Below are positions 3,411-19,915 of a DNA stretch of 64,000 nucleotides, piece after piece (position 1 is the stretch's first letter; every line of letters begins with the position of its first letter). A program made the translations under genes and the position numbers. The notes beneath the pieces were generated by a model, which was not told the origin of the DNA, did no database searches, and was given only the letters and a program-made list of their open reading frames with translations. This DNA is from an uncultured delta proteobacterium (GTDB lineage Bacteria > Desulfobacterota > WTBG01). The stretch lies in the NCBI GenBank assembly GCA_963793865.1, contig CAWCBP010000012.1, positions 104,986-168,985 of the forward strand, given 5' to 3'.

Positions 3411-3469
3411 CGGTAGGAGCAGCTTTAGCTGCGATTAATTATATTCGCGACCGGAGGTCGCTCCTACCG
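3411..3469. repeat. GTAG-flanked REP-like doublet
   Basis: CGGTAGGAGC...GCTCCTACCG ends enclosing two small hairpins. Confidence 0.75.
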
Positions 3470-4693
3470 ATTGCCTGACGAACCGATGAGAGAATCCAGT
3501 AAAACCCGCAGCTTATTTTTAAATTCTTCATCGTTTTCCAGGGTCTGAGCGAGCATCGGGCTCAGGCGGGAATAGAGATCAATCAGTTGGCGGCCCTCCG
3601 GTGTTGTGTTCAATACTTCATCCCGAAACAAGCGCAAAGCTTCCGTTTCAGGGGCCTGGTCGCCATACAGTATGACTACGGGACAGCCGGGAACGGTTGT
3701 CGTGGTTGTTGAAACAGGCGCGTATTTCTTGATGCAGTCGTTAGCGGCGTCAGCCACATAGATATTACCCTGATTGTCAATTGCCAGTCCATACGGGGAA
3801 GGCTGCGCTCCAAACCCGCCCTTTCCTTCGAGGACGATGGTGGTAATGAGTGTGCCGTCTTGATCAATTTTCTTGATGCTGTGATGCAGTGCGTCGGAAA
3901 CATATATGTTTCCGACCCCGTCCAGCGCAATGCCGGTCGTGGTGCAGAAGATATCGTCTGCGGTGCATGGTTGGATTTGATCAACCAAGTCTCCGCCGGC
4001 TTGAAAAATCTGTATCGGACCAATGATGGTTGCCGGTACGTAGAGATTATTCGCCGAATCTGTTGCCATCTCCAGGGCATCGAACCAGATGAACGGCCAC
4101 TGGTCTATCAATATCCCCTCAGCGGTAAATTTTTGGATGCAGGTATAGTAGCGATCGGGCGGGGTAAGGGCCGCATGGTGCACGTAGATGCCGCCTTCTC
4201 CGTCCACTGCCAGCGCTCGAGGGGTGGAGTAAAGCCACCACCCGTCCGGCCTTGTGCTCCAGGCTGCAAGAAATTCTCCATCCGGAGTAAATTTTTGAAT
4301 GCGGTCGTTCAGAAAATCTGCCACGTACACATTGTCTTCCCCGTCCACGTCAATGCCCTGGGGGGCTATGAATTGGCCTTCCTCACTACCGTATCTCCCC
4401 CACCCGGTAAGGAATGTGCCATCCGGAGTAAATTTTTGAATTCGGTGATTCGACGGATCCGATACGAAAAGATTGCTATCGCCGTCTATGGCAATTCCGT
4501 GGGGCTCAAGAAACTGTCCGTCTTCGGTGCCTGAACCGCCCCACTCAGCAACAAGTTCATAGTCTTGGGAGGCAGAGAAATGAGTTCCGCACAGCAAAAG
4601 TGAAGAACAAAAAACTGAAAAAATGGCGGATAGCTCAGATTCCCCATGATGATCCTCCTTCATATGACACATTGAAATATCATTGAATTCCAA
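3464..4693 (-). CDS. Exported NHL-repeat beta-propeller protein with Thr linker and CFI-box-like C-terminal domain
   Basis: Repeated GQF..P.GIA.D..N.YV.D..N.RIQKF; TTTTTVPGCP..LRLFRDEVL..GRQLIDLY tail; true start may be the SD-preceded ATG at 4647 with a frameshift. Confidence 0.85.
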   Translation of the reverse strand: MEFNDISMCHMKEDHHGESELSAIFSVFCSSLLLCGTHFSASQDYELVAEWGGSGTEDGQFLEPHGIAIDGDSNLFVSDPSNHRIQKFTPDGTFLTGWGRYGSEEGQFIAPQGIDVDGEDNVYVADFLNDRIQKFTPDGEFLAAWSTRPDGWWLYSTPRALAVDGEGGIYVHHAALTPPDRYYTCIQKFTAEGILIDQWPFIWFDALEMATDSANNLYVPATIIGPIQIFQAGGDLVDQIQPCTADDIFCTTTGIALDGVGNIYVSDALHHSIKKIDQDGTLITTIVLEGKGGFGAQPSPYGLAIDNQGNIYVADAANDCIKKYAPVSTTTTTVPGCPVVILYGDQAPETEALRLFRDEVLNTTPEGRQLIDLYSRLSPMLAQTLENDEEFKNKLRVLLDSLIGSSGNR

Positions 4694-4757: not shown

Positions 4758-4785
4758 GTAGGGGCGACCGGCCGGTCGCCCCTAC
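4758..4785. repeat. REP palindrome GTAGGGGCGACCGGCCGGTCGCCCCTAC, copy 1 of 4
   Basis: Perfect 28-bp palindrome with GTAG ends. Confidence 0.9.
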
Positions 4786-4880
4786 GGAACTGATTTTCGT
4801 GTTACGTGGTGAAATCTTTTCGTATTGCGTGAAAGGTGTGACAACCGGTGTTGCATATTTCCTCCCCCGGCACTTCACTC

Positions 4881-6368
4881 TTAATCATGCCCCGCTGTCC
4901 CCACAACACGGGCGCGAACGGCCAGATCGTAGGGCATCGTTGTTCCGCGTCCGATCGCCTGCCATGCTTTGCCGTCTTCGCTCACATAACAGCGTTCATT
5001 TTCGGGAGGACCCGTCACATCAACGGGGATGGGGTAACAATATCCCGGTGTGGTCAGCCGTATGGCAACAACAAAGTCATCGCCGACCCTTAGCGGGAGA
5101 GGGCGCAATAGCTTGATAGAGTAGTAGCCCAGCTCATCGCACCTTCCCCTCTTGACGCAGCGCAGGTTTCGCATTGAATTCCCCTGCATCCGATCGTACA
5201 CCCTGATTTCGTACATCGCATTCACGCTGGTTGTCCAGAAGTCAACCGCCCGCAAAACCCCTGCCGTTTCGGGGATGAAAACTGCTGCGCACCAGGCTGT
5301 AGGCCTTCCCGCGCCGATGGAATTAACGCCGTCGCAGGACCCTCCCGCGTCGAGGCAGAAAAAACCTCCTTCGTCGTAGCAGAGGATGGATTCGTCAGGG
5401 TCGGAATCTTTGTATGAGGAGATAAAACTGGACATGGTTCCTATTTTGGCTGCGCCGTAGGCGATGTGGCAGTAACCATTCATCCCCCAGTCATCACCCC
5501 AGCTGTTCTTGACGATCCAGGCGCCTGCAGGTCCCAGGTTATCATCCCAGCCGACAATGAGAACGGAGTGGTTTGCCATGAGGGAATCATAATATTCATA
5601 GACCCCTCCCGTATATGCCCGGAAAGCGGGATCGGATGCATCCATCGAGGACGTGACCGGCCCATGCCTGTAGAGAGCTGCCTTGATGGCCTCAACCAGG
5701 TTGGGAAGCACCCTCCAGCCATCCACATTTTTAATTATTTCGCAGCGGTGGTCGCACGGAACTCCGTCAACGGCCAGAAAAGGTTGGCATGATTCGAGGG
5801 AAGCGCCCCGCCGGGTCAAATAATTGATCGCCCTGAAGGCACTCCCGCCGGTAGAGCAGCTCCGGGCTTTCCCGGCAGAGGCAATGAAGTCACATGAGGC
5901 CAGCCCCTGTTCCGAAAGATCGTATGCTACGCCCTCGCGCAGCAGAATTTTTGATTCAAGCTCTGCCGCCGCGGTGAAGGCCCAGCACAGCTGGCAGGGA
6001 TATTGATCTTTTACCGGTGTTATTTTGTCTTCATCCCGCCAGTCAAAGTATGAAGGGAGATGCCGCACGGGGTAAGGCCTTTTGAGCCGGCGTTCTTCAA
6101 TGCTGCAGGGGATGGAGCCGGGCAGATTAGCGCTTTGACCAGGGGGCAGGTTATACATCCGGGTCTCGTCCACGGTAAAATTAAAACCCTGCTGCCGTAT
6201 GCGATTTCTTATCTCCTCAATCGAGGGAAGAGGCTTATAGTCTGACCCTGCCATACTATCCTCAACAGTTTGCCGGAGCGGGCTGGATAGGTTCCAGCCG
6301 CATGCAGTCTTGAAGGAAATGCCCAGTGATAGTAAACAGGTACAGAAAATGAAAAAAGGCTTGTTCAT
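4881..6368 (-). CDS. Secreted papain-family (C1A) cysteine protease with C-terminal lectin-like domain
   Basis: FDWR, DQYPCQLCWAF (catalytic Cys), NHSVLIVGWDD (His), WIVKNSWG (Asn); signal-peptide-like start MNKPFFIF. Confidence 0.9.
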   Translation of the reverse strand: MNKPFFIFCTCLLSLGISFKTACGWNLSSPLRQTVEDSMAGSDYKPLPSIEEIRNRIRQQGFNFTVDETRMYNLPPGQSANLPGSIPCSIEERRLKRPYPVRHLPSYFDWRDEDKITPVKDQYPCQLCWAFTAAAELESKILLREGVAYDLSEQGLASCDFIASAGKARSCSTGGSAFRAINYLTRRGASLESCQPFLAVDGVPCDHRCEIIKNVDGWRVLPNLVEAIKAALYRHGPVTSSMDASDPAFRAYTGGVYEYYDSLMANHSVLIVGWDDNLGPAGAWIVKNSWGDDWGMNGYCHIAYGAAKIGTMSSFISSYKDSDPDESILCYDEGGFFCLDAGGSCDGVNSIGAGRPTAWCAAVFIPETAGVLRAVDFWTTSVNAMYEIRVYDRMQGNSMRNLRCVKRGRCDELGYYSIKLLRPLPLRVGDDFVVAIRLTTPGYCYPIPVDVTGPPENERCYVSEDGKAWQAIGRGTTMPYDLAVRARVVGTAGHD

Positions 6369-6598
6369 GGGAATGTACCCCCGGGATAGATTCATGTCAC
6401 TGTTCCGGAGATGAACGGGTTGCTTCCCGATTGTGGGCCGGCATGTCCGTATTACCATCCACGCCTCAGTGAGACAGCTGCTGAAGAAAACCATCTCAGG
6501 TAAACAAGAAAGGGTTACTGCACCTGGGTGAGGAGGTAATGGCGGAAGGCATGGATCAATACAGGATATGCCGGCCCCATTGACAAAATCCATGTGTA

Positions 6599-6994
6599 TC
6601 AATTACAAATGCCGTCATTGCACGTATTGTAACAGAGCACCAGGTCGATGTAGTACATCATCCATGCCAGTCCCAGGCAGGGCACAACCTCTTCTCCGCC
6701 CAGCACGCACATCACTGCTGTCGCAAACCATGCAACCAGAGCAATTTCATCACAGCCGATGCCTTTTGGCTGCCCCGCGTTGTACCATGCCCACCAGTCA
6801 TTGGCTTTTACTCCGGATGTGCCGTATCTGTAAAAGGCGCTGAAATTGTCCGTGCAGCATTTTGTGCAATCGCATGCGGCATTACAATTCTTGTCACTGG
6901 GCAGCCCCGGCAGTATGGCGGCCGAAGCGGTTTGCGCCACGCATGTCCAGGCCACCAGTAAAGCTATCATTGCGGCGATAGTTCGAATCTTCAT
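6599..6994 (-). CDS. Small exported cysteine-rich protein (131 aa), function unknown
   Basis: Strong SD AAGGAGGTGA; signal peptide MKIRTIAA..ASA; 11 Cys after the signal; no His. Confidence 0.75.
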   Translation of the reverse strand: MKIRTIAAMIALLVAWTCVAQTASAAILPGLPSDKNCNAACDCTKCCTDNFSAFYRYGTSGVKANDWWAWYNAGQPKGIGCDEIALVAWFATAVMCVLGGEEVVPCLGLAWMMYYIDLVLCYNTCNDGICN

Positions 6995-7085
6995 TTCACT
7001 CACCTCCTTTCTTCTCAATGGTAATTTTGTCCTTCTTTTTTCCGTCACCTCCTTGCATGTCACCGCCTGTGCTCCTTCCTTGCGC

Positions 7086-8264
7086 TCATGGCATATCTTC
7101 TGCCAGTGGCGTCTGCCCGTTTTCTATAGCCGTAATCACTTCTTCCAGATACGTGAGGGAAGGGGTCCCTGACAGATAGAATCCATTAATGATTATGCCG
7201 GGGGTGCTGTTGATGCCCGCCAGGGCAGCCTCGGTCACATCCTTTTCCACCTCTTCCCTCCTACTGTCATCCTCCAGACACCGGTCAAACCGTACGGTTT
7301 CGAGGCCCGCCTGCCGGGCATATCTGCGCAGGCTTGCGACGTCCAGTTCCTGCTGATTGTCAAAAAGCAGATCATGATAATCCCAGTAGCGGTCCTGATC
7401 GTCGGCACATGCCGCTGCCAGCGCGGCCATGGGGGCGTCAGGGTGGGAAGGGAGCGGAAAGTCCCTGGCAACGATTCGTATGGCCCCTTTCTTTGTAACC
7501 AGCAGTTCTTTCAGTGTTGCGCTTGCCTTTTTGCAGGAGGGACACTGAAAATCAATGAAGGACTGAATGGTGATGGGGGCATCTCTGCGGCCAAGCCAGG
7601 GACCATCATCAGGCGTGAGGTCAAGGCGGAGAAGCGGTGGACGTTTGAGGAGAATTTCAATTCTCGATTGGTCCCGCAGTCCCCGGACAAAGGCTTCCCG
7701 TGCCTCGTTGACAGAAGCGGCCTTTTTCATTTCAACCACCTTGCTTTTAATGGCCTCTATAAACGGAGTGCCGGCACTGCCTGCCGGAAGAGAGATCCCC
7801 TCCGCGGCGTCCGGTGCTTGCATCACCGCAGTCCTTTTGGAAAACGATGGGAAATCATGCTGCATCTTTTTGACAAACTCCTGAAAGAGGGCTTCTTTAT
7901 CAGATTCAAATGCTTGTGCCTTTTCTTCCGCCTGCGCAGTGACCATGGCGATAAGTTCATCAGCCTTCATGTTTCTTTTCGCCGCCTCCTGTTCCAGAAG
8001 CTTTTGGTCAATGTGCTGCTGAAGGACCGCCTTCTGCTCCCGGTAGAGACGAACCTCCATCGCCTGCAGCTCAACATTGTATCGCTGCGCCGGGTCATAA
8101 CCGAGTTCATGCAGGCGAATTGCCGTTCCATCAATTCGTGCAATCACCCTGTCTCGTGCTTCCGCATCATCCAGGGCAGTTTGCTTGTCACCTGCAATAG
8201 AGGTGAATGCTGTACCAAGCAAGGCACAGTGGACAACCACTACAAGCGCCGGCATTTTTCTCAT
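7086..8264 (-). CDS. DsbA/thioredoxin-fold oxidoreductase with SurA-N-like helical N-terminus
   Basis: FIDFQCPSC, RDFPL..H, YWDYHDLLF, GINSTP; N-terminal signal. Confidence 0.88.
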   Translation of the reverse strand: MRKMPALVVVVHCALLGTAFTSIAGDKQTALDDAEARDRVIARIDGTAIRLHELGYDPAQRYNVELQAMEVRLYREQKAVLQQHIDQKLLEQEAAKRNMKADELIAMVTAQAEEKAQAFESDKEALFQEFVKKMQHDFPSFSKRTAVMQAPDAAEGISLPAGSAGTPFIEAIKSKVVEMKKAASVNEAREAFVRGLRDQSRIEILLKRPPLLRLDLTPDDGPWLGRRDAPITIQSFIDFQCPSCKKASATLKELLVTKKGAIRIVARDFPLPSHPDAPMAALAAACADDQDRYWDYHDLLFDNQQELDVASLRRYARQAGLETVRFDRCLEDDSRREEVEKDVTEAALAGINSTPGIIINGFYLSGTPSLTYLEEVITAIENGQTPLAEDMP

Positions 8265-8353
8265 GGCATTTCCTTTTTTCGTGGGTTTTTTTTCGTCCGG
8301 AGTCTGGCCCGGCACGCGCTCTCCGCATGCCGCTTTCTTATCCGGAGCATTTA

Positions 8354-9649
8354 TTAACCGGGTTGAGGGAGGTTGTGTTTCATAAGGTTTCTAAAAACAA
8401 GCCTGCATAGGGCGGCAAAGTGATCTTCCATTGCGCGGCAGAACATTTCCTCGGTCAGCGTGTCTGTTTTTGCCCCCTCGAGCAGTGAGTCGAGTTTCTT
8501 TATGAATTCATCGCCATTTAAAAACTGTATGGAAAATCTGTTCATAAGGTATCCGGCAAGATTGCGGGTCCGAACCGTGTCCCACGTGTAACGTTCTTGA
8601 ATAAAAGCTGTTTTCTCTTCCATGTCTTCGCTGTAAGAAACACCGGCGGGATAGGCCGCGTATTCCGGATGCGGCTCCCGGCCGGGTACGGCTGCTGCCT
8701 TGAATTGTTGTATGCGCGCCTCAAGCAGGCGGGTAAAGGCAGATGTGCCTGACTCCATAAAACTCTCCTCCATGACCCGGTAGAAAACGCCCTCGTCTAT
8801 GTGCGTTCCCCCCGCCCGCGCCAACCGCTGCTCGAGACGTTCCGCGAAATCGTCAATCAAGTGTTGCGAAGGAAGCTTGTTGACAAGCGCCCAGGCACGT
8901 TTTTCGGCCTGCTGATCCTTCCATGCATAGTGCTTCTTCAGCTGCGCGATTTTCTTCTCCACCGTTTCCTCCCGCGGGCAGGTTTTTGTTCCTGAAGCGC
9001 TGCTGCCCGTCCAAAATGCGTAGCAGGTATAATCAGGCAGAACATGGATTGCCTGTAGCGTTTCCATGGTTGCCCAGAAAAATATGAAAGAGGGGAGCAT
9101 ACATGCCAGCCGGGCGTTATTGCTGCCTGCCCGGAAGGTTTTATAAAGCATGAGGAGCGCGATGAGTAAAAAGACCAGACCTGTTCCCGCGGTGACGACC
9201 GTACGAAGGGTGGGAATATAATCCTGCAGCACTTTTCCCCCATTGATCAGGAAGGCATGAAGCAGCCAGACACATCCGAAATGGCCGAGCGCGAAGCGCA
9301 TGCCGATTGGCAGCGCCCTTTTGTAAATAATACAGGAAATGAGAAGAATGCAGGGAATGAGCATGACAGCGGCATCAGGTGTAACCAGCGATAATATTTG
9401 CTCGTGCTCCAGAAGTTCGCCGAAGAAGCACCAGAGGAAGAAGCCGGCTACAATTCCCCAGACTGCCTCCTTTTTCTTTTCAGCGCCTCCTGAGGCCTTC
9501 CAGAGGGTGACGACCACCGAGATGAATAATATTGCCGCCAGGGCGGTCGTTGCCGAAAGGCCCATCCCGTAGGCCATGGACATGCAGAAATGGCCGAGAA
9601 AATAGATGCCATAGAAGAGGGTGAAGTACGCGAGAACAAATGGGATCAT
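8354..9649 (-). CDS. Polytopic membrane protein with duplicated C-terminal helical domain
   Basis: About 7 hydrophobic segments, then two related repeats (KKHYAW..FYRVMEE; QERYTW..FCRAMED). Confidence 0.7.
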   Translation of the reverse strand: MIPFVLAYFTLFYGIYFLGHFCMSMAYGMGLSATTALAAILFISVVVTLWKASGGAEKKKEAVWGIVAGFFLWCFFGELLEHEQILSLVTPDAAVMLIPCILLISCIIYKRALPIGMRFALGHFGCVWLLHAFLINGGKVLQDYIPTLRTVVTAGTGLVFLLIALLMLYKTFRAGSNNARLACMLPSFIFFWATMETLQAIHVLPDYTCYAFWTGSSASGTKTCPREETVEKKIAQLKKHYAWKDQQAEKRAWALVNKLPSQHLIDDFAERLEQRLARAGGTHIDEGVFYRVMEESFMESGTSAFTRLLEARIQQFKAAAVPGREPHPEYAAYPAGVSYSEDMEEKTAFIQERYTWDTVRTRNLAGYLMNRFSIQFLNGDEFIKKLDSLLEGAKTDTLTEEMFCRAMEDHFAALCRLVFRNLMKHNLPQPG

Positions 9650-9684
9650 GATTCCTGCCTTCCTTCTTTGTGCATCACGTTTGG

Positions 9685-10545
9685 CTAGAACCCGTTGCGG
9701 GAGTTGTCGTCCCGCTCATGTGCCCTGCTGTTGTGGTAGTGTTGGCTCAATCGCCTGACCTGCTGCATCATGAGCGGTGCAACATCGGGCGGAGCGGCGG
9801 CTTCGATTGCCTGGTAAAACGCCGCTGCGTTTAAAGGGGCGGTTCTTTCAGGCCCGCAGATTTTGTCGAGTTCCTTTACAATTCCGTCCAGCCCGAAATC
9901 TTTCGCCTCATCGGGCATTGCCTCCAGAAGATACAGTGCCCATTCGCGTGTTTCGTCATCTTCCCACAGGTAGCGGTCTTTAAAGGATGAGATCTTTTGC
10001 GAATATCCGTCACGCGGGGTGGAGGGCGCTGTGATATCTTCGCCTGGCTCATGCTGCCGTGCAGGTGGATCAGTACCGGGATTGCTGAATGCCGCCCCCG
10101 CCATTCCGCCGTTTGCAAAAATAATGACCTCTGTAATCGATTGACGGCGGCGGTCCCTGTCGCTGTAGCGGACGAGGTAATTTTTTGCCCCGGCTGCCTT
10201 GAGCAGTATCTTAATGGCCTGTTCGAGCGGAAGGTCTTTAACGTGAATGCTGATGGGGTTAAACAGATGGTATGCTCCCCGACAGGTGATGTTTACCCGG
10301 CATGTATCACCCAGAGTCCCGAGAAGGGTTTCAAGAGGCGCATCCAAAGCATTTACGGAAACGACGTACCCCTGGGGGATCTCTTTCACTGTCACTTCGG
10401 GCCCTGACTGTACCGTGAGGGCACCGGCAGCAGGTAATGCAGCTACCGAAAAAGCGAAGATGAAAAGGAAAAGAGCCTGTTTCAGCATATGTTGAGCATT
10501 TCTCGCACAGAGCATGATACAATCATCGTATGGGGTAATGGGCAC
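9685..10545 (-). CDS. Exported protein with STN/secretin-N0-like domain and C-terminal helical domain
   Basis: Signal peptide; DAPLETLL..ISIHVKDLPLEQAIKILL; tail KDRYLW..FYQAIE resembles the repeats of the next gene; start may be ~10488. Confidence 0.6.
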   Translation of the reverse strand: MPITPYDDCIMLCARNAQHMLKQALFLFIFAFSVAALPAAGALTVQSGPEVTVKEIPQGYVVSVNALDAPLETLLGTLGDTCRVNITCRGAYHLFNPISIHVKDLPLEQAIKILLKAAGAKNYLVRYSDRDRRRQSITEVIIFANGGMAGAAFSNPGTDPPARQHEPGEDITAPSTPRDGYSQKISSFKDRYLWEDDETREWALYLLEAMPDEAKDFGLDGIVKELDKICGPERTAPLNAAAFYQAIEAAAPPDVAPLMMQQVRRLSQHYHNSRAHERDDNSRNGF

Positions 10546-11377
10546 TTGTCATCAGGTAACTGGCCGCAATGCAAAAAGAGGAGACGGCGGCACCAAAGGC
10601 GGTTATGGACAGGACGGCGCTCGCGGTCCTGTCCCACCAGCGCTGATACCTGCCGTGGAGTATGAGCGCGTAGAGGAGCCACATGATCAGGCTTGCCGTC
10701 TCCACCGGATCCCAGCTCCAGTAGTGTCCCCAGATGATCCTGGCCCGGTACGCGCCGGTTGCCATTGCCATGCTGAAGAGTATAAAACCTACCGCCATGG
10801 CTTTATAGCCGATGTCGTCCAGTACCTGCGGCATCGGAAGCCGGTTAAGCATTGCCTGCGGCAGCGCCATGAGTTTTAACCGCTCTTTGGCAATGATCAG
10901 GAGTGCTGCTACACAGGCGATGAGAAAGGCGGCCAGGCTCATAATGCAGCTTGTAACATGATATGCCAGCACATTGCCCTTGAGAACCGGGGGGAGCGCC
11001 TCTATGCCGGGCGAGATCCCGATTGAGCCGGATGCAGAGAGCATGGCAAGCGAAATAAAGGGCAGGATAAAAACTCCAAGCGCTTTTGTCCTGCAAACAC
11101 GTTCGAGGGCAAGATACATCAGGGTCAGCGACCAGCAGGCAAAGACGATGGTTTCGTAAAGGGTAAAGAACGAGAGAGGACTGTGACCCATGCCGAGCTG
11201 ATACGACTCAAACCACCGCAGCGCGTAGGCGGCGGTGTGAGCAAGGAATCCGGCAACGGTCATGCCGGTTGCGGCTCTCCCGATTGCCCCCAGGCGAAAG
11301 AAGAAGTAGCAGCTATACGCCAGCGATGAAAAAAGATAGACGTAAGAAACCGCACTGAAAAGCGCCACATTTATCAT
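10523..11377 (-). CDS. ccsB: System II cytochrome c synthetase, WWD subunit (CcsB/CcsA/ResC type)
   Basis: RWFESY..GH.PL...YET, WGHYWSWDPVET (WWD motif), terminal His. Confidence 0.92.
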   Translation of the reverse strand: MINVALFSAVSYVYLFSSLAYSCYFFFRLGAIGRAATGMTVAGFLAHTAAYALRWFESYQLGMGHSPLSFFTLYETIVFACWSLTLMYLALERVCRTKALGVFILPFISLAMLSASGSIGISPGIEALPPVLKGNVLAYHVTSCIMSLAAFLIACVAALLIIAKERLKLMALPQAMLNRLPMPQVLDDIGYKAMAVGFILFSMAMATGAYRARIIWGHYWSWDPVETASLIMWLLYALILHGRYQRWWDRTASAVLSITAFGAAVSSFCIAASYLMTSAHYPIR

Positions 11378-11437
11378 GTCCTTCCCCCTGTTACCCCTTA
11401 TAACCGTTGCATGCCTGAAATATGAGCGGCACGAAAA

Positions 11438-12874
11438 TCAGGCAGCCCGGTATTGCAAGGCCAGCTTCTTGATGAGGCCGGCATAGTGTTCCAGGACATC
11501 CGGGTTGCGGCTGGCCCAGCCGGCAACCGTTACGCAGTAGTCGCCGCCGCCGTTTTCGATCGCTATCCAAATCTTTCGGTGAGCAAGCATAAACATCAGG
11601 GAAAAGCCGGCAATGGCAATCCCCGCGCCGGTCCAGATGAGACCTGCTCCCGGCTCGGTGCTGACGATGAGGCGCATGAAGCTGGATGCGCTTTCACAAG
11701 CTTCGATGCCGTCAAGGCGGAACTCATACTCTTTATCCCATGGTTGTGCGGGTCTCCCGGCATGAGCGGTGACCCGCGGTTTATAGAGGAGAGCGTTGTT
11801 ATTCCCGTATACCTCAAGTGTGACCATGCATGATGCCTGGCAGGCAGACGATGTTTTCTGAAAAGAATCCGCGTGGAAATGATGGCTGAAGAAAATATCT
11901 TTCAGGCGAACGGTGTGTCCCGTCTCCGGAATGGTACAGCACTGATAGCGCTTCAGGGTAAATGACCTGCGCTTGCCGACTCCTTGTGGTGACAGGATTG
12001 ACAGGATTATTTGATGGCTGTCCTTGCCGGGAGATCGTGACTGACTGATGCGAATGCCGTCCCTGGTAATGGTCCGGTATCCCTCCAGCTTCTCCCGTAC
12101 TTCTTTTTTGTCTTCCTGCAACAGCGTGACCTTCGTTTGATATATTGCTTGAGAATGATCGCTGCTTCCCGATGTTGATCCGACCGGCTCGCATTCGTCA
12201 AGCCTGATGGCGTAGTCAAGCCTTCTAAAGCATGGGTTGCCGTTTTCTTTGAAGAAAACCCTGTCGTCGCTTTCTCCCTCTCTGAGATACATCTCGCCTG
12301 ATTGCGAGTAACTTCCCCAAAACCCCCCTGCCAGCACCATCAGAAGGCCGCTGTGCGCCAGGTAAAATCCCCCATGGTAAAGCCTGCCCCGCTGGCAGAA
12401 AAAAACAGATCCGGTTGTGCTGTGGTGTACCGATGGTCTGGATAGTTTTTTGGCCAGAAGACTGTAAAGGGCCGGGTAGAATCCCTCCCGCAGGAAGGCC
12501 ACAGTAAAGGTATCCCGGAAAAGCGGTGAAGACGGCATTGTGCGTCTCTCCGCAGACCTGCTGAGAGAAAGAGCCTTGAGCGTTCCCGGTATGCGTTTTG
12601 CCATGCAGGCAATCAGGTTCAGGATAAACAGGATGAGCAGCATTTTGAAAAAGCGGGAGGCATCAACATCAGTGGAAAAGCAACCATTAAGAAGATTGCT
12701 GACACTGCCGCTTCCGGGCAGATGAATAGCTCTAACAAAGGAAATAATCCCGCCCTTCATGAGATCCGCAAGCATGGTGAGTAAAAACATGACCAGCAGA
12801 ATAATGGTAAAGTTGATTGAAGATATAAAAGTGAAGATGCGGTTTAGAATCCTTTTCACGCCGTCCCTGCGCAC
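11438..12874 (-). CDS. resB: ResB/Ccs1-family cytochrome c biogenesis protein
   Basis: NLIAC, YLAHSGLLMVLAG (conserved His), EPGA.LIWTG..HRKIW. Confidence 0.88.
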   Translation of the reverse strand: MRRDGVKRILNRIFTFISSINFTIILLVMFLLTMLADLMKGGIISFVRAIHLPGSGSVSNLLNGCFSTDVDASRFFKMLLILFILNLIACMAKRIPGTLKALSLSRSAERRTMPSSPLFRDTFTVAFLREGFYPALYSLLAKKLSRPSVHHSTTGSVFFCQRGRLYHGGFYLAHSGLLMVLAGGFWGSYSQSGEMYLREGESDDRVFFKENGNPCFRRLDYAIRLDECEPVGSTSGSSDHSQAIYQTKVTLLQEDKKEVREKLEGYRTITRDGIRISQSRSPGKDSHQIILSILSPQGVGKRRSFTLKRYQCCTIPETGHTVRLKDIFFSHHFHADSFQKTSSACQASCMVTLEVYGNNNALLYKPRVTAHAGRPAQPWDKEYEFRLDGIEACESASSFMRLIVSTEPGAGLIWTGAGIAIAGFSLMFMLAHRKIWIAIENGGGDYCVTVAGWASRNPDVLEHYAGLIKKLALQYRAA

Positions 12875-12883
12875 CAGGCTTTG

Positions 12884-14382
12884 CTATCCTGACCTGGCGC
12901 ATGAATACAATTCTCTGTTTTGAATCATTGGCAACTCGTTTTTGAGATTACCTTGTTGGATTTCGTGAGGCATGGATCCCATGGCGGACATGTGATTGCG
13001 CAGAAAGGAGTTTTGCATCATGGCCTTTAATCCCTTGAAAAGCATGCTCTTCTTACATTCATCCTCCAGCGCATTCCACTGCGGCAGTTTTTTTTGATAG
13101 TATGTTTTGTAGCACCGCAATGCCTCCTGAAATACTTCATCGCGGGTCATGCTGCGCGGTTTTATGACGGGGTTACCAGGTTGTAGTTGCTGTAGTCCCA
13201 GTCCTCGATATAGGGTTTCAGATCCCGGTATATGTCAGCATAAGGCCAGGGGGTTATCATGAGGAAATGAGGATTATCCGCGTTATAGTGTTGAGCCAGA
13301 TCGAGGGTCTTCTGTATCGATTGTGGCGTCTCGTGTGGCAGGCCCAGGATAAAAGAGCACTCGGTTATGATATGGTGCTCGTTCAGAAGCCGGATGGCCT
13401 CGCGGCATTCCCGGCAGGTCTGGGATTTTTTAAAGATATCAAGAACCGTCTGGTCCGCCGACTCGACGCCGATGAACATATGAACGATGCCGGCCTTGCG
13501 ATACTTGAAGAGAATGTCTTTATCTCTGACAATATCTCCGGCGCGGGTCTCGGCCAGCAGGTATATGCCCAGGTCTTTTTCTATCAGCAGGTCCAGGATT
13601 GCCTCCCAGCGTTCCCGGTCGCAGGTGGGATATTCATCAGCAATGAAAAAGGCGTTCACGCCAAAGCGGTGAAAGAGGTATTCTATTTCCCCGACAAAGT
13701 TTTGCGGACTCCTCGCGCGATAGGACTGCTGCCAGAATTTCTGCTGTGAACAGAAAGCGCAGCTGTTGCCGCAACCTCGCGAAGAGGAAACAAGGGCCAC
13801 CTTTGCATCCTCAAGGAAGCTCAGGTAGTAGTCTTCCCAGCAAAGAAGATCCCAGGCAGGAGAGAGCGAATCAAGGTCATCCATAAATTCCCTTTGTGGT
13901 GTCATGATAATCTTTCCACCCTTCCGGTATGCAATCCCTTTAACCTCTGACAGTTGCCTGTTTCCCTCAATGGCGTCCAACAGTTCCGTGGTTGTATATT
14001 CGCCTTCCCACCTGACAATGTAATCAATGACCCCGTTTCCCTGCTGCAGGGTTTCTTCGGGCATCATGGTGGGGTGGATGCCGCCGATGATGGTTATGAT
14101 CTGCGGATCGATGGATTTGGCCAGGGCGAGCACCCGGGTGGCATCGCGGATGGTGGCGGTATAGGCGGTGGAGCCGACGATATCCGGCCGTGACTCGGTG
14201 ATGCGCTTGCTGATGTCCACATAGGTGTGGTCCTTTGCCATGGCGTCATAGATTTCAACTTCGTGCCCGGCATTTCTCAGCTCACCGGCTATATAAAGGA
14301 ACCCCAGGTTGGCCCACCTTCCCGCCGATTCAACCACCCCGCAGTGATAGGGCGGGGTAATAAGCAGTATCTTCTTTCCCAT
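12884..14382 (-). CDS. Cobalamin-binding radical SAM enzyme (BchE-like class); frameshift near 13168
   Basis: N-terminal B12-binding domain (IIGGIHPT), SRGCGNSCAFC; C-terminus continues as VIKPRSMTRDEV in ORF 12884..13150; SD GGGAGG. Confidence 0.9.
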
Positions 14383-14435
14383 GCATTTCCTCCCTGAATG
14401 CAATGCCACTCTTCAGCACTGGCGCATTACTGCAT

Positions 14436-14452
14436 GGCAACAAGCGTGCCAG
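14436..14452 (-). promoter_or_regulatory. Sigma54 promoter upstream of the radical SAM-resB-ccsB cluster
   Basis: Minus strand CTGGCACGCTTGTTGCC matches TGGCAC-N5-TTGC, ~55 bp before the ATG. Confidence 0.8.
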
Positions 14453-16198: not shown

Positions 16199-16424
16199 AA
16201 ACTGTCCAGCCTGTGCCAGGTGCTTGAGTGAAGAATAATTGCTTTTTTAACCTCGGAAAAGCTATTATTGGGCCATTATAGGTGGCAAATAGGGAGCTTA
16301 AGAAAATAATATCAACCGGTTAGCTTGGCCCGACCCCATGTGATGCATGCTCCATTTAAGCATGGTGTCCCAGGAACTTTAAACGGCGCCTCACTGCCCT
16401 CTGCAAACAGGTCGTGCACGATGC

Positions 16425-17469
16425 TTATTGATCCTGAAAATAACCGCCTGCTCTCCAGTCGCTAATCCCTGTTGCACTTCGGGAAGCTCCCCCACTCTCA
16501 CTTGCAGAGTCACCCTTGCAGTATTGCCTAATCCCCCGCTCACGCTGGAACCAGCACCGCTTGCTGTATTGAGTCCTCCTCCGCTTACGCTGGAATATGC
16601 TTCGCTCGTGCGATCTGACAAATCCGGATCTCCTGCTAAGTTCAAAGAGTCTCCCAGCACCGTTGAATAGTTTGCAAATGCCGTATTTCCACTTAATGCC
16701 GTATCGTAACCACCACCGCCCACAAAGGCATAATCCCCGCTGGCCACATTATACCTGCCCCCGCTTACGCTGGCAGCCTCGCCGCTTGCAGCGTTATCAG
16801 ATCCTCCGCTGACGCTCGCATATTGACCGCTTGCCTGGTTGTTATACCCTCCGCTCACGCTGGAATAAGTATTGCTCGCTCTATTTGCTGATCCGCCGCT
16901 TACACTGGCATGCTGGCCGCTTGCCGTATTGCCACATCCTCCACTCACGCTGGCATAGGGTCCGGAAATGGTATTGCTGATGCCTGTTACCATTCCCCCA
17001 TACGAAGAATAATTATGCCATCTGCCGACCACAACATTGTGTGAACCAGTGCGAACATCCCCGCTGCCGCGAAGCTCGTTGTAGCTTACAATCAGGTTTC
17101 CCAGACCATTGATTGGTTCACCGGTATTGCCGCTGCCGTTTACAATCTGTACATTCACTCCGCTGAACCGGATCGTATCCTGTCCGTTCACGAGCAGTCT
17201 TGTTACATTGGCCAGCAGCGCTTCTAGTTGCGTAATCCTCATTTCCAGTTGCTCGGCGGTCTGGCACTCGATCACCGGGCAGGGATCCAGCAATGAACTT
17301 CTGCCGAAATCCGACTTGAACACGAAGGCATCGGTACCATCCTGGTCCAGATCATTATCGAAATTGCCCTCACAGTAGTCGATTGGTTGTGCCATGACGA
17401 CAGGCACTGATGATGAAAACAAAAAAGCTGCTGCTACCGCAAAGACCATCTTCCCATCAACCGTTTCAT
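16425..17469 (-). CDS. Exported SVSGG-repeat (beta-helix-like) surface protein, paralog A; two frameshifts
   Basis: ~14-aa SVSGG..N.ASG repeats; the paralog alignment restores start MKRLM (17469) and tail GGASRSATGISDWRAGGYFQDQ* (16425). Confidence 0.8.
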
Positions 17470-18196: not shown

Positions 18197-19519
18197 TTAA
18201 TTATACTCATACAAAGTGCCTGCTGTCCAATCCTCACTGCCTGTCGCACTTCGGGCAGCACCTCCGCTCACGCTGGAGCAATAGGCGCTGGCTTGGTTAA
18301 TGTCCCCCCCGCTCACGCTGGCACCCCAGCCGGTTGCTTGACCATCCCGACCGCCACTAATGCTGGCATAATCACCGCTTGCGTAATTTCCATTTCCCCC
18401 GCTCACACTTGAAGCATCACCACGCGCTGTATTTCTTTCCCCTCCGCTCACACTGGAATTTTCTCCAATTGTGTGATCTGTCAGGGCTCCATCTCCTGCT
18501 ACGTTATCTCTTCCCCCAAGCACCGCTGAATAATGAGCAAATGCTGTATTTCCATATCCTGCTGTGTCGGCACCACCACCACCACCAACAAAGGAATAAT
18601 CACCGCTGGCCACATTATATCTTCCGCCGCTCACACTGGCACCCCAGGCGGTTGCCGTATTATTGAACCCGCCGCTCACCGTGGAACGGGAGCCGCTTGC
18701 TATATTATATTGCCCTCCGCTCACCGTGGCTGACTGGGCAAAGGTATGGTCGATGAGATCCGGATCGCCGGTAAGATTACTGCGGCCGCCCAGTATTGCT
18801 GTATAATGACCGAATGCCTGATTTCCATCAGATGCACTGGTATATCCACCTCCGCCTACGAAGGAGAAATCACCGCCGGCTTCATTATACCTGCCGCCGC
18901 TCACGCTGGCATAAGCGCCGCTTGCAGTATTAACTGTTCCTCCGCTCACATTGGTGCCAGAAGCACTTGCTATATTACCGGCTCCCCCGCTCACGCTGGC
19001 ATAGGATCCGGAAATCGTATTGTGGCGGCCTACTACCAGCCCACCATAGGATGAATAGTTGTGCTCTGCACCGACCACAACATTGTGAGACCCGGTTCGA
19101 TTGTCACCGCTGCCGCGAAGCTCGTTATATCCCACAATAAAGTTGCCCAGACCATTCGTGGTTCCGCCTGTTGTCCCGCTCCCATTAACGATATGAACAT
19201 TCACTCCGCTAAAGGTGATGTCGTTCCCGTCCCTGGTCACATTTGCCAGCAGAGCAGTCAATTGTGCCACCTGCGTTTTTAGCTGCTCAATCTCAATTCC
19301 TAATTCTTCGGCCGTCTGGCATTCGATCACCGGGCAGGGATCCAGGAGTGAGCTCCTGCCGAAATCGGACTTGAACACAAAGGCATCCGAGCCATCCTGG
19401 TCCGCATCGTTGTCAAAATTGCCCTCGCAATAGTCAATCGGTTGCGCCATGACAGGAGATACTGATAGTGAAACCATAAACCCGATTACCATTGTGAACA
19501 CGAATATCAATCTCTTCAT
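18197..19519 (-). CDS. Exported SVSGG-repeat surface protein, paralog B
   Basis: Signal peptide MKRLIFVF, QPIDYCEGNFDND.DQDG.DAF.FKSDFGR, coiled coil, SVSGG repeats. Confidence 0.85.
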   Translation of the reverse strand: MKRLIFVFTMVIGFMVSLSVSPVMAQPIDYCEGNFDNDADQDGSDAFVFKSDFGRSSLLDPCPVIECQTAEELGIEIEQLKTQVAQLTALLANVTRDGNDITFSGVNVHIVNGSGTTGGTTNGLGNFIVGYNELRGSGDNRTGSHNVVVGAEHNYSSYGGLVVGRHNTISGSYASVSGGAGNIASASGTNVSGGTVNTASGAYASVSGGRYNEAGGDFSFVGGGGYTSASDGNQAFGHYTAILGGRSNLTGDPDLIDHTFAQSATVSGGQYNIASGSRSTVSGGFNNTATAWGASVSGGRYNVASGDYSFVGGGGGADTAGYGNTAFAHYSAVLGGRDNVAGDGALTDHTIGENSSVSGGERNTARGDASSVSGGNGNYASGDYASISGGRDGQATGWGASVSGGDINQASAYCSSVSGGAARSATGSEDWTAGTLYEYN

Positions 19520-19915
19520 ACCATCCTCCCGCAAAAAAAATTCCCGCTTCATTCCCTGACCACCATGGTCAGCGGTAAAGCGGGGTTATCTCTCACAAAA
19601 ACATCATGTGTGCCACTCTATTCCCCTCCGGATTATCACGTATCGTAATTTAATCATAAAATACCTGTTCCCTCAAGGACTAAAAACCCCACGGACTGCG
19701 GGATTCTTAATTTGGCTGTGCGGAGAGAAAATCCTAGACCGCTCACGCAAAAGGTGCTACAAATATGGGTAACATCGAAGGTTGCCTGTTATCCGCGTTC
19801 AACGATGTAGAGCGGCTGTCTGAACTGTTGTTGCTTCACCTGGAATACGACCTGCCGGACGGTCATCAAACGTTCTGTTTCATCCCCCTGGCCAGGACCG
19901 GAATGGAGTAAACGG

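Follow-up and report, generated by a model that had tools for sequence, protein, structure and literature searches.

The 64,000-nucleotide stretch analyzed here (the window; positions 104,986 to 168,985 of contig CAWCBP010000012.1, assembly GCA_963793865.1, from an uncultured delta proteobacterium) contained eight co-oriented genes on the minus strand at 4881..14452, the position given in a first-pass annotation made from the sequence alone. A B12-dependent radical S-adenosylmethionine (SAM) enzyme (hereafter rSAM) and a ResB/CcsB pair are encoded first, followed by exported and membrane proteins, and a possible role of this cluster in tailoring and exporting heme is considered below. The features, in the direction of transcription, were as follows.

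14437..14451, minus strand: sigma54 -24/-12 promoter motif (TGGCAC-N5-TTGC), with the rSAM ATG (14382) 55 nt downstream
12884..14409, minus strand: B12-dependent radical SAM enzyme (B12-binding and Radical_SAM), in two open reading frames (ORFs; 13162-14409 and 12884-13150) with a one-base frameshift between them
11438..12874, minus strand: ResB (CcsB-type) subunit, ResB family, with the transmembrane (TM) histidine (LAHS/GGLL) in all five aligned orthologues
10523..11377, minus strand: atypical CcsB/ResC (CcsA-type) subunit, with H140, H241, and H280 invariant, and R211, V225, and A228 at the positions of W828, K842, and W845
9685..10545, minus strand: exported protein, weakly STN-like (E 0.035, below the cut-off), with one helical repeat as in the next gene
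8354..9649, minus strand: membrane protein of no assigned family, with about seven N-terminal helices, then two helical repeats
7086..8264, minus strand: SurA_N and DsbA-type thioredoxin (Thioredoxin_4/DSBA), with CPxC and a cis-Pro loop
6599..6994, minus strand: Cys-rich protein of 131 residues, the candidate acceptor, with no His and, as judged by eye, a Sec-type signal peptide
6432..6578, minus strand: long single-copy hairpin, immediately downstream of the Cys-rich gene
4881..6368, minus strand: exported C1A cysteine protease (Peptidase_C1 and Lectin_like), with catalytic Q/C/H/N motifs
3464..4693, minus strand: NHL beta-propeller with a CFI-box-CTERM domain, co-oriented and past the protease

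The order, families, and promoter site agreed with the first-pass annotation, while its description of the genes as closely spaced held only in part: gaps were 91 nt or less as far as the Cys-rich gene, but the protease started approximately 230 nt beyond, after the hairpin. Its gene list had also missed the rSAM frameshift and the NHL gene, which followed in six orthologous loci (L001, L004, L006, L083, L084, and L087) and is probably a ninth member of the cluster. The sigma54 site was one of 12 strict-pattern matches in the 3.85-Mb genome, and a TGGC...TTGC site was aligned in all seven upstream regions compared (TGGCGC in L003); sigma70 and terminator scans gave nothing above chance level. 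Among the best 80 of 235 loci fetched with rSAM, the order rSAM-resB-ccsB-STN-membrane-DsbA-Cys was repeated in four, and nine metagenome loci fetched with the Cys-rich protein matched it as far as each reached; the order was kept in L001, L002, L004, L006, L083, L084, and L087. At the genome level, it was found in four other members of the same family, while a genome of another family (G008) had its first five genes, and named relatives carried the labels Thermodesulfobacteriota or delta proteobacterium. The rSAM, the membrane protein, and the top-scoring CcsB subclade occurred in the identical six of 42 class genomes, five of which also encoded the Cys-rich protein. In the sixth (G008), two extra small exported proteins separated rSAM from resB, and the contig stopped after the membrane gene; these two proteins (L105:1322-1756 and 1981-2355) had near-identical N-termini and a common C-terminus ending in GCK. 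The ratio of nonsynonymous to synonymous substitution rates (dN/dS) was 0.07-0.35 for all cluster genes wherever dS was measurable. The gene cluster is therefore real: it is conserved, under selection, and co-oriented, with a conserved sigma54 site, and the expectation that the downstream genes travel with rSAM and ccsB was borne out by synteny in the orthologous loci.

The rSAM ORF 13162-14409 ended early because a single base was absent near position 13170 relative to orthologues, and the missing C-terminus was found in ORF 12884-13150 (intact orthologues: approximately 510 residues). Among the matches listed, contigs of related strains had an extra base at 13168: run X2 (depth 6.8/6.8) and run X1 (8.5/29.4). 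Since dN/dS of rSAM was also 0.07-0.10 against three orthologues, the break is an assembly or sequence error or a recent lesion, and the same values ruled out a long-dead pseudogene.

The rSAM protein possessed B12-binding and radical SAM domains with CxxxCxxC, and its nearest named family was BchE, the anaerobic Mg-protoporphyrin IX monomethyl ester cyclase, with the same domains. Two intact orthologues scored 402.6 and 416 bits on the BchE model (TIGR02026), below its cut-off of 481.35, versus at most 167 bits on non-BchE models. The best plasmid matches of rSAM were annotated as bchE (36-40% identity), and identity with an annotated BchE was 40% across 475 residues, including the C-terminal region. 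In a quick tree (29 rows with long branches and one BchE row, BchQ/R being left out), the 22 rows of the rSAM family grouped with BchE, apart from the other B12 enzymes of the genome, with a support value of 96 in the Shimodaira-Hasegawa-like approximate likelihood ratio test (SH-aLRT). By these sequence comparisons, the rSAM family is a sister group of BchE. It differed from BchE in its neighbors, which were ccs and cytochrome genes rather than bch: no bch genes were recognized among recurrent rSAM neighbors, the genome itself not having been searched for them. Because of the kinship with BchE and the gene context, a tetrapyrrole is the putative substrate.

The first-pass annotation had also proposed a pathway resembling those of ribosomally synthesized and post-translationally modified peptides (RiPPs), with oxidative folding and proteolytic release. 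Here, the Cys-rich precursor would be methylated or cross-linked by rSAM prior to export, then folded by DsbA and released by the protease. Peptides are known substrates of class B radical SAM enzymes, and the small Cys-rich exported product and the adjacent protease fit such a scheme. Models of RiPP maturases, however, gave only 135-149 bits (ApyD, cut-off 750) and 108 bits (rSAM_ocin_1, cut-off 282), far below these cut-offs, against 402.6 and 416 bits on the BchE model. Moreover, the rSAM family is widespread without the Cys-rich protein, the signal peptide of the latter is of the Sec type, the protease was missing from one orthologous locus (L006/L087), and ResB and CcsB are left unexplained. 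No RiPP recognition element (RRE) domain or leader-core precursor was matched in Pfam or NCBIfam, a search aimed at RRE not having been made. This proposal appears very improbable.

Homologues of rSAM with 50-57% identity were found in Geobacteraceae, Nitrospirota, Bacillota, Bacteroidota, and others, some Nitrospirota members bearing a C-terminal Polyketide_cyc (SRPBCC) domain; of 401 genomes sampled from the phylum, 16 encoded such a homologue. A ccsB-like gene accompanied rSAM in 32 of the 80 loci, a wider pairing that had been overlooked in the first-pass annotation; the literature covered (titles and the beginnings of abstracts, with subscription journals outside coverage) contained no description of it. 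Twenty-three of these 32 loci also carried a multiheme ORF and nine did not, so the rSAM-ccs loci are not confined to multiheme surroundings. The CcsBs from distant rSAM loci had V, I, L, or M at the position of K842 (numbering of Helicobacter hepaticus CcsBA, mapped by alignment, here and below) in 24 of 29 rows; the other five were one WDPKE copy, one truncated, and three more divergent, four of which were omitted from the CcsB tree. The 24 K842-less proteins formed their own clade in this quick tree (SH-aLRT 99). In G261 and G043, the rSAM-adjacent CcsB had WDPVE and three other copies with a readable motif had WDPKE, several copies being unreadable by pattern. A further divergent type of CcsB, adjoining the same rSAM family in L180, L181, L183, and L184, had YYSS in place of WAN, and in L181 and L184 its gene was followed by four genes for exported or membrane proteins in a conserved run. 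Two other recurrent neighbors were observed near rSAM: a membrane protein of approximately 130 residues in 26 of the 80 loci (e.g., L075:9579-9974), with no Pfam match, and a second, more distant B12 radical SAM enzyme.

These distributions are compatible with another arrangement, in which rSAM-resB-ccsB is a mobile cytochrome-tailoring module acting in trans on ordinary multihemes, the downstream genes being a co-regulated secretion unit. The many multihemes encoded by the genome and the multiheme ORFs in 23 of the 32 loci agree with it. However, the CcsB of the window lay outside the multiheme-associated clade and derived from the class housekeeping copy in the quick tree, the multiheme cluster of the genome has its own WDPKE pair, and the downstream genes were linked to the module in two families, so that we consider this arrangement improbable.

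The ResB and Cytochrom_C_asm subunits of the cluster lie side by side, with 109.8 bits on PF05140 and 109.1 bits on PF01578. H140, H241, and H280 of CcsB were invariant in 22 rows and LAH of ResB in five, and all four heme-ligating histidines were retained across the pair by sequence, the TM and P-His being assigned by alignment position. CcsB also retained W833, W837, W839, D840, and E843, as in the System II CcsBA (ResB/ResC) of H. hepaticus (PDB 7S9Y), which is composed of the same ResB and CcsA-type pair. It differed from this protein by W828R, N830R/K, S832I, K842V, W845A, V889A, and N890S, by a score of 150.3 bits on TIGR03144 (cut-off 187.6), and by the absence of a CXXCH product in the operon. 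K842, V889, and N890 are part of the proposed first-cysteine pocket near the 2-vinyl group, and W828, A829, S832, and W833 of the proposed second-cysteine pocket (PMC10663686); both pockets beside the vinyl groups are therefore rebuilt at the level of the alignment. Among database hits of at least 240 residues, W828 was replaced by R or Q in 54 of 54 subclade members, none of which had K842, while K842 was found in 34 of 38 hits outside the subclade. In cysteine substitution experiments, W828 was essential for synthase function in H. hepaticus and Campylobacter jejuni, as was K988 (= K842) in C. jejuni (PMC11322641). Of the WWD positions on which synthase activity depends (W828, A829, and W833, with K842 in C. 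jejuni), W828 and K842 were gone and W833 was kept. Because of these losses and the score below the cut-off, the pair, which would act like a dedicated System II lyase locus, is not filed here as a canonical synthase.

In the quick tree, the window CcsB subclade joined a sister subclade, B (SH-aLRT 100), and then the class housekeeping copies (88). Since the window subclade and the clade of distant rSAM loci were separate, K842 was lost at least twice on this tree. A second, canonical ResB/CcsB pair of the genome (WDPKE; C1:545509-547776) adjoined 16 ORFs, each with at least three CXXCH motifs, and serves these multihemes; the cluster is thus not the only ccs system of the genome. Subclade B comprised ResB/CcsB pairs with W828R/H, K842V/T, and E843Q in eight loci (L106-L109, L111-L113, and L116, from genomes G035, G020, G030, G015, G021, G008, G019, and G010), none with an rSAM or multiheme neighbor; the idea that K842V always marks rSAM was weakened by these losses. 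An exported CbiX-like protein followed four of the eight loci (one family, with a Pfam CbiX match in three of the four), and Cys-rich exported TSP3/S8 proteins preceded or adjoined several. Two exported CbiX-like proteins (G000:C12:6652-7692 and C9:75606-76544) were also encoded in the genome of the window itself, surrounded by secreted NHL-repeat genes. An AhbD-like heme synthase match in the same genome (G000:C6:228170-228916) covered model positions 93-339 only, was below the cut-off, and possibly represents another frameshift.

Loss of W828 suggests that the pair may be an exporter rather than a ligase: a modified or carboxylate-rich tetrapyrrole would be moved outward and handed over without a covalent bond, either to the His/Glu-rich membrane protein or to some other binder in the envelope, with the Cys-rich protein as an ordinary disulfide co-product. 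The retained histidines, the loss of W828, and the pair of basic residues acquired at 828/830, next to the 4-vinyl group, are consistent with this, as are the CbiX-like proteins that follow half of the subclade B loci and the lack of multiheme neighbors there. The proposed receiver, the membrane protein, has four invariant His and tracked rSAM in all six genomes: H20, E78, E81, H82, H123, H131, and E196 were invariant in 24 rows. However, its distant paralogues kept an H/E/H/E set, which may more likely be a metal site than a heme pair. Furthermore, four rSAM-adjacent CcsBs carried Tyr or Ser close to 828 and Val or Ala at 842, one of them being encoded upstream of a CXXCH protein, and the loss of W828 may therefore not exclude ligation. 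We regard release without a covalent bond as somewhat unlikely.

The membrane protein shared a helical repeat with the STN-like protein, and a database protein (P0129, on a single contig) fused the two. It gave no convincing Pfam match and ESM Atlas scores below 0.8; its model (predicted local distance difference test score, pLDDT, of 78) had no Foldseek match at E≤0.001, and the best VIA match had a Z of 7.8, on small helical parts. Weak paralogues of its TM domain were located at G000:C2:34910-35716, C14:157579-158373, and C1:540882-541694, the first two with the His/Glu set.

The SurA-DsbA fusion had CPxC in all five rows. VKOR was found in none of 42 class genomes and DsbB in none of five tested (controls were positive), although DsbA-like proteins were present. 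The atypical CcsBA might accordingly be a heme wire that re-oxidizes DsbA as a DsbB analogue, the operon being an oxidative-folding module in which heme modification serves the wire. The Cys-rich exported proteins that often adjoin subclade B loci, and a distant homologue of the Cys-rich protein compatible with an all-disulfide fold (P0014, see below), point in the same direction. On the other hand, only 14 of the 42 class genomes could be confirmed to carry the atypical CcsB clade, several mid-scoring matches aside, subclade B genes had no dsbA as a neighbor, and we know of no precedent for CcsBA in such a role; we judge it unlikely. If true, it would explain the oxidation of DsbA without DsbB or VKOR in anaerobes with disulfide-rich secretomes.

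The products of all eight genes, the rSAM tail, and the NHL protein contained no CXXCH, in agreement with the first-pass annotation for the eight, and no C-x(0-17)-CH, the known variant motifs being CXXCK, CX3CH, CX4CH, and CX11-17CH in the list given by PMC11492766. The sole CXXCK was the DsbA active site (CPSCK; CPFCS in L002). The 131-residue protein had 11 Cys, invariant in 16 close homologues, with the motif C37-x3-C41-D-C43-x-K-C46-C47, and since the number is odd, at least one must be unpaired. The segment C43-x-K45-C46-C47 resembled CxKCH with Cys in the place of His; CXXCC was not among the known heme motifs given in PMC11492766. No Pfam or NCBIfam family was assigned to the protein (best ESM Atlas score, 0.82), and no paralogue was detected in its own genome and no match in five further genomes. 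When 1.84 billion representatives were searched with a profile, three matches were obtained, two of them full-length (P0012 and P0014). The AlphaFold2 model was too poor for disulfide assignment or a fold search (mean pLDDT 49), and a complex prediction of CcsB, heme, and the Cys-rich protein (score 0.00) gave no verdict and is evidence neither way.

The hairpin beyond this gene had a z of -3.0, and 96% of cells were paired, with two-sided changes in three of 35 pairs (eight related rows, from which the structure was itself derived). A coding reading was ruled out by indels and stops among orthologues, and no Rfam match was found. Because the hairpin accompanied the Cys gene even where the protease was absent, it suggests that the Cys-rich protein is an abundant product, and the hairpin may be an mRNA stabilizer. 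Its unpaired part held an anti-Shine-Dalgarno-like stretch.

Taken together, we tentatively favor, as a possible rather than a probable reading of the whole, a sigma54-controlled pathway that would run from the tailoring of heme by rSAM, through its export by the altered CcsBA, to its receipt by the 11-Cys protein; tailoring and export, with the acceptor left aside, are fairly probable. In the cytoplasm, the BchE-like enzyme would alter a side chain, on heme itself or on one of its late precursors, by methylation or oxidative chemistry, and ResB/CcsB with its rebuilt pockets would carry the altered heme outside. The putative acceptor would be the His-free 131-residue protein, through its C43-x-K-C46-C47 segment, linked through a single cysteine, which leaves five disulfides, or through CxxC thioethers and the C47 thiolate, which leaves four; the SurA-DsbA fusion would form the disulfides, and the protease may be accessory. 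In this assembly, the rSAM step would be broken by the frameshift. For the earlier suggestion that a tetrapyrrole is modified, exported, and attached, kinship with BchE and the rebuilt CcsB pockets thus argue for modification and export, whereas covalent attachment is made uncertain by Arg at position 828.

Several observations weigh against this pathway. Not only is rSAM frameshifted here, but in the closest relative (L004) it was split by an inserted transposase-like ORF, which from its sequence we take to be IS4-like, and other genes were frameshifted. For most of the 80 rSAM loci, the fetched DNA showed no ccsB, and in G429 a 67%-identical rSAM was accompanied by two CcsBs, both WDPKE. Subclade B genomes lacked this rSAM at E≤1e-80, except for G008; since W828 and K842 were lost there without it, the pocket changes in the window need not stem from rSAM. 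Covalent attachment may be lost, because W828, required in the tested CcsBAs, is Arg here. Regarding the acceptor, no Cys-protein or close DsbA orthologue was detected in G008, the contig of which ends past the membrane gene; a twelfth Cys was present in two of the 16 close homologues; and P0012 kept CxxCC with 13 Cys and D at K45. P0014 (12 Cys) lacked both C43 and C130 and kept C46 and C47, which fits an all-disulfide fold. This pattern also fits a C43-C130 disulfide, with C46 or C47 as the spare thiol, and, since both residues are absent together, a single-cysteine link appears at least as likely as CXXCC.

Dedicated lyases beside a housekeeping system are known in Wolinella: NrfI (CXXCK) and CcsA1 (CX15CH) are likewise extra paralogues with a presumed client, retain conserved CcsBA features (PMC10663686), and serve multiheme enzymes. 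The present pair differed from them in its altered pockets, a candidate client without His, and the rSAM gene at the first position of the operon. Accessory ResB/ResC pairs of Geobacteraceae (e.g., GSU2891-GSU2890) are likewise extra pairs co-located with clients; unlike the pair here, they adjoin giant CXXCH/CX4CH multihemes. In 2009, their purposes were described as remaining to be determined (PMC2700814). Geotalea loci L026 and L033 bear this rSAM family. GSU2888 of Geobacter sulfurreducens is presumably the same enzyme. In the heme d1 pathway, a tetrapyrrole is likewise tailored by a radical SAM enzyme (NirJ) and then exported, periplasmic delivery following the NirJ step. NirJ is not known to be B12-dependent; no nir genes were present here, and export would use a CcsBA derivative.

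A broader generalization would be that the BchE-sister enzymes make a hitherto undescribed modified heme and that K842 was lost more than once among CcsBs in adaptation to carrying it, to giant multihemes in Geobacteraceae, Nitrospirota, Bacillota, and Bacteroidota and, as a covalent thiolate-ligated heme, to the secreted His-free CxKCC protein here; we consider this speculative and quite unlikely in full. Should rSAM yield a modified heme, Geobacteraceae, Nitrospirota, and Bacillota would carry a non-protoheme cofactor in some of their electron-transfer cytochromes, accessory ResB/CcsB pairs would have a purpose, and the sister family of BchE would have a non-photosynthetic function. A His-free acceptor would add a mode of heme binding invisible to CXXCH motif scans. 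The most testable outcome is the wider pairing of the rSAM family with K842-less CcsBs.

The protease, by its combination of C1A and lectin-like domains, is presumably Cwp84-like. Between it and the NHL gene (window ~4758-4786), we found a 28-nt palindromic element resembling repetitive extragenic palindromic (REP) sequences, with 48 exact copies across the genome. Upstream of the cluster, 16391-17449 and 18197-19552 (both on the minus strand) encoded paralogous exported proteins with Gly/Ser-rich beta-roll-like repeats, the first of which seems to be C-terminally truncated; we take their Cys-flanked N-terminus to be dockerin-like.

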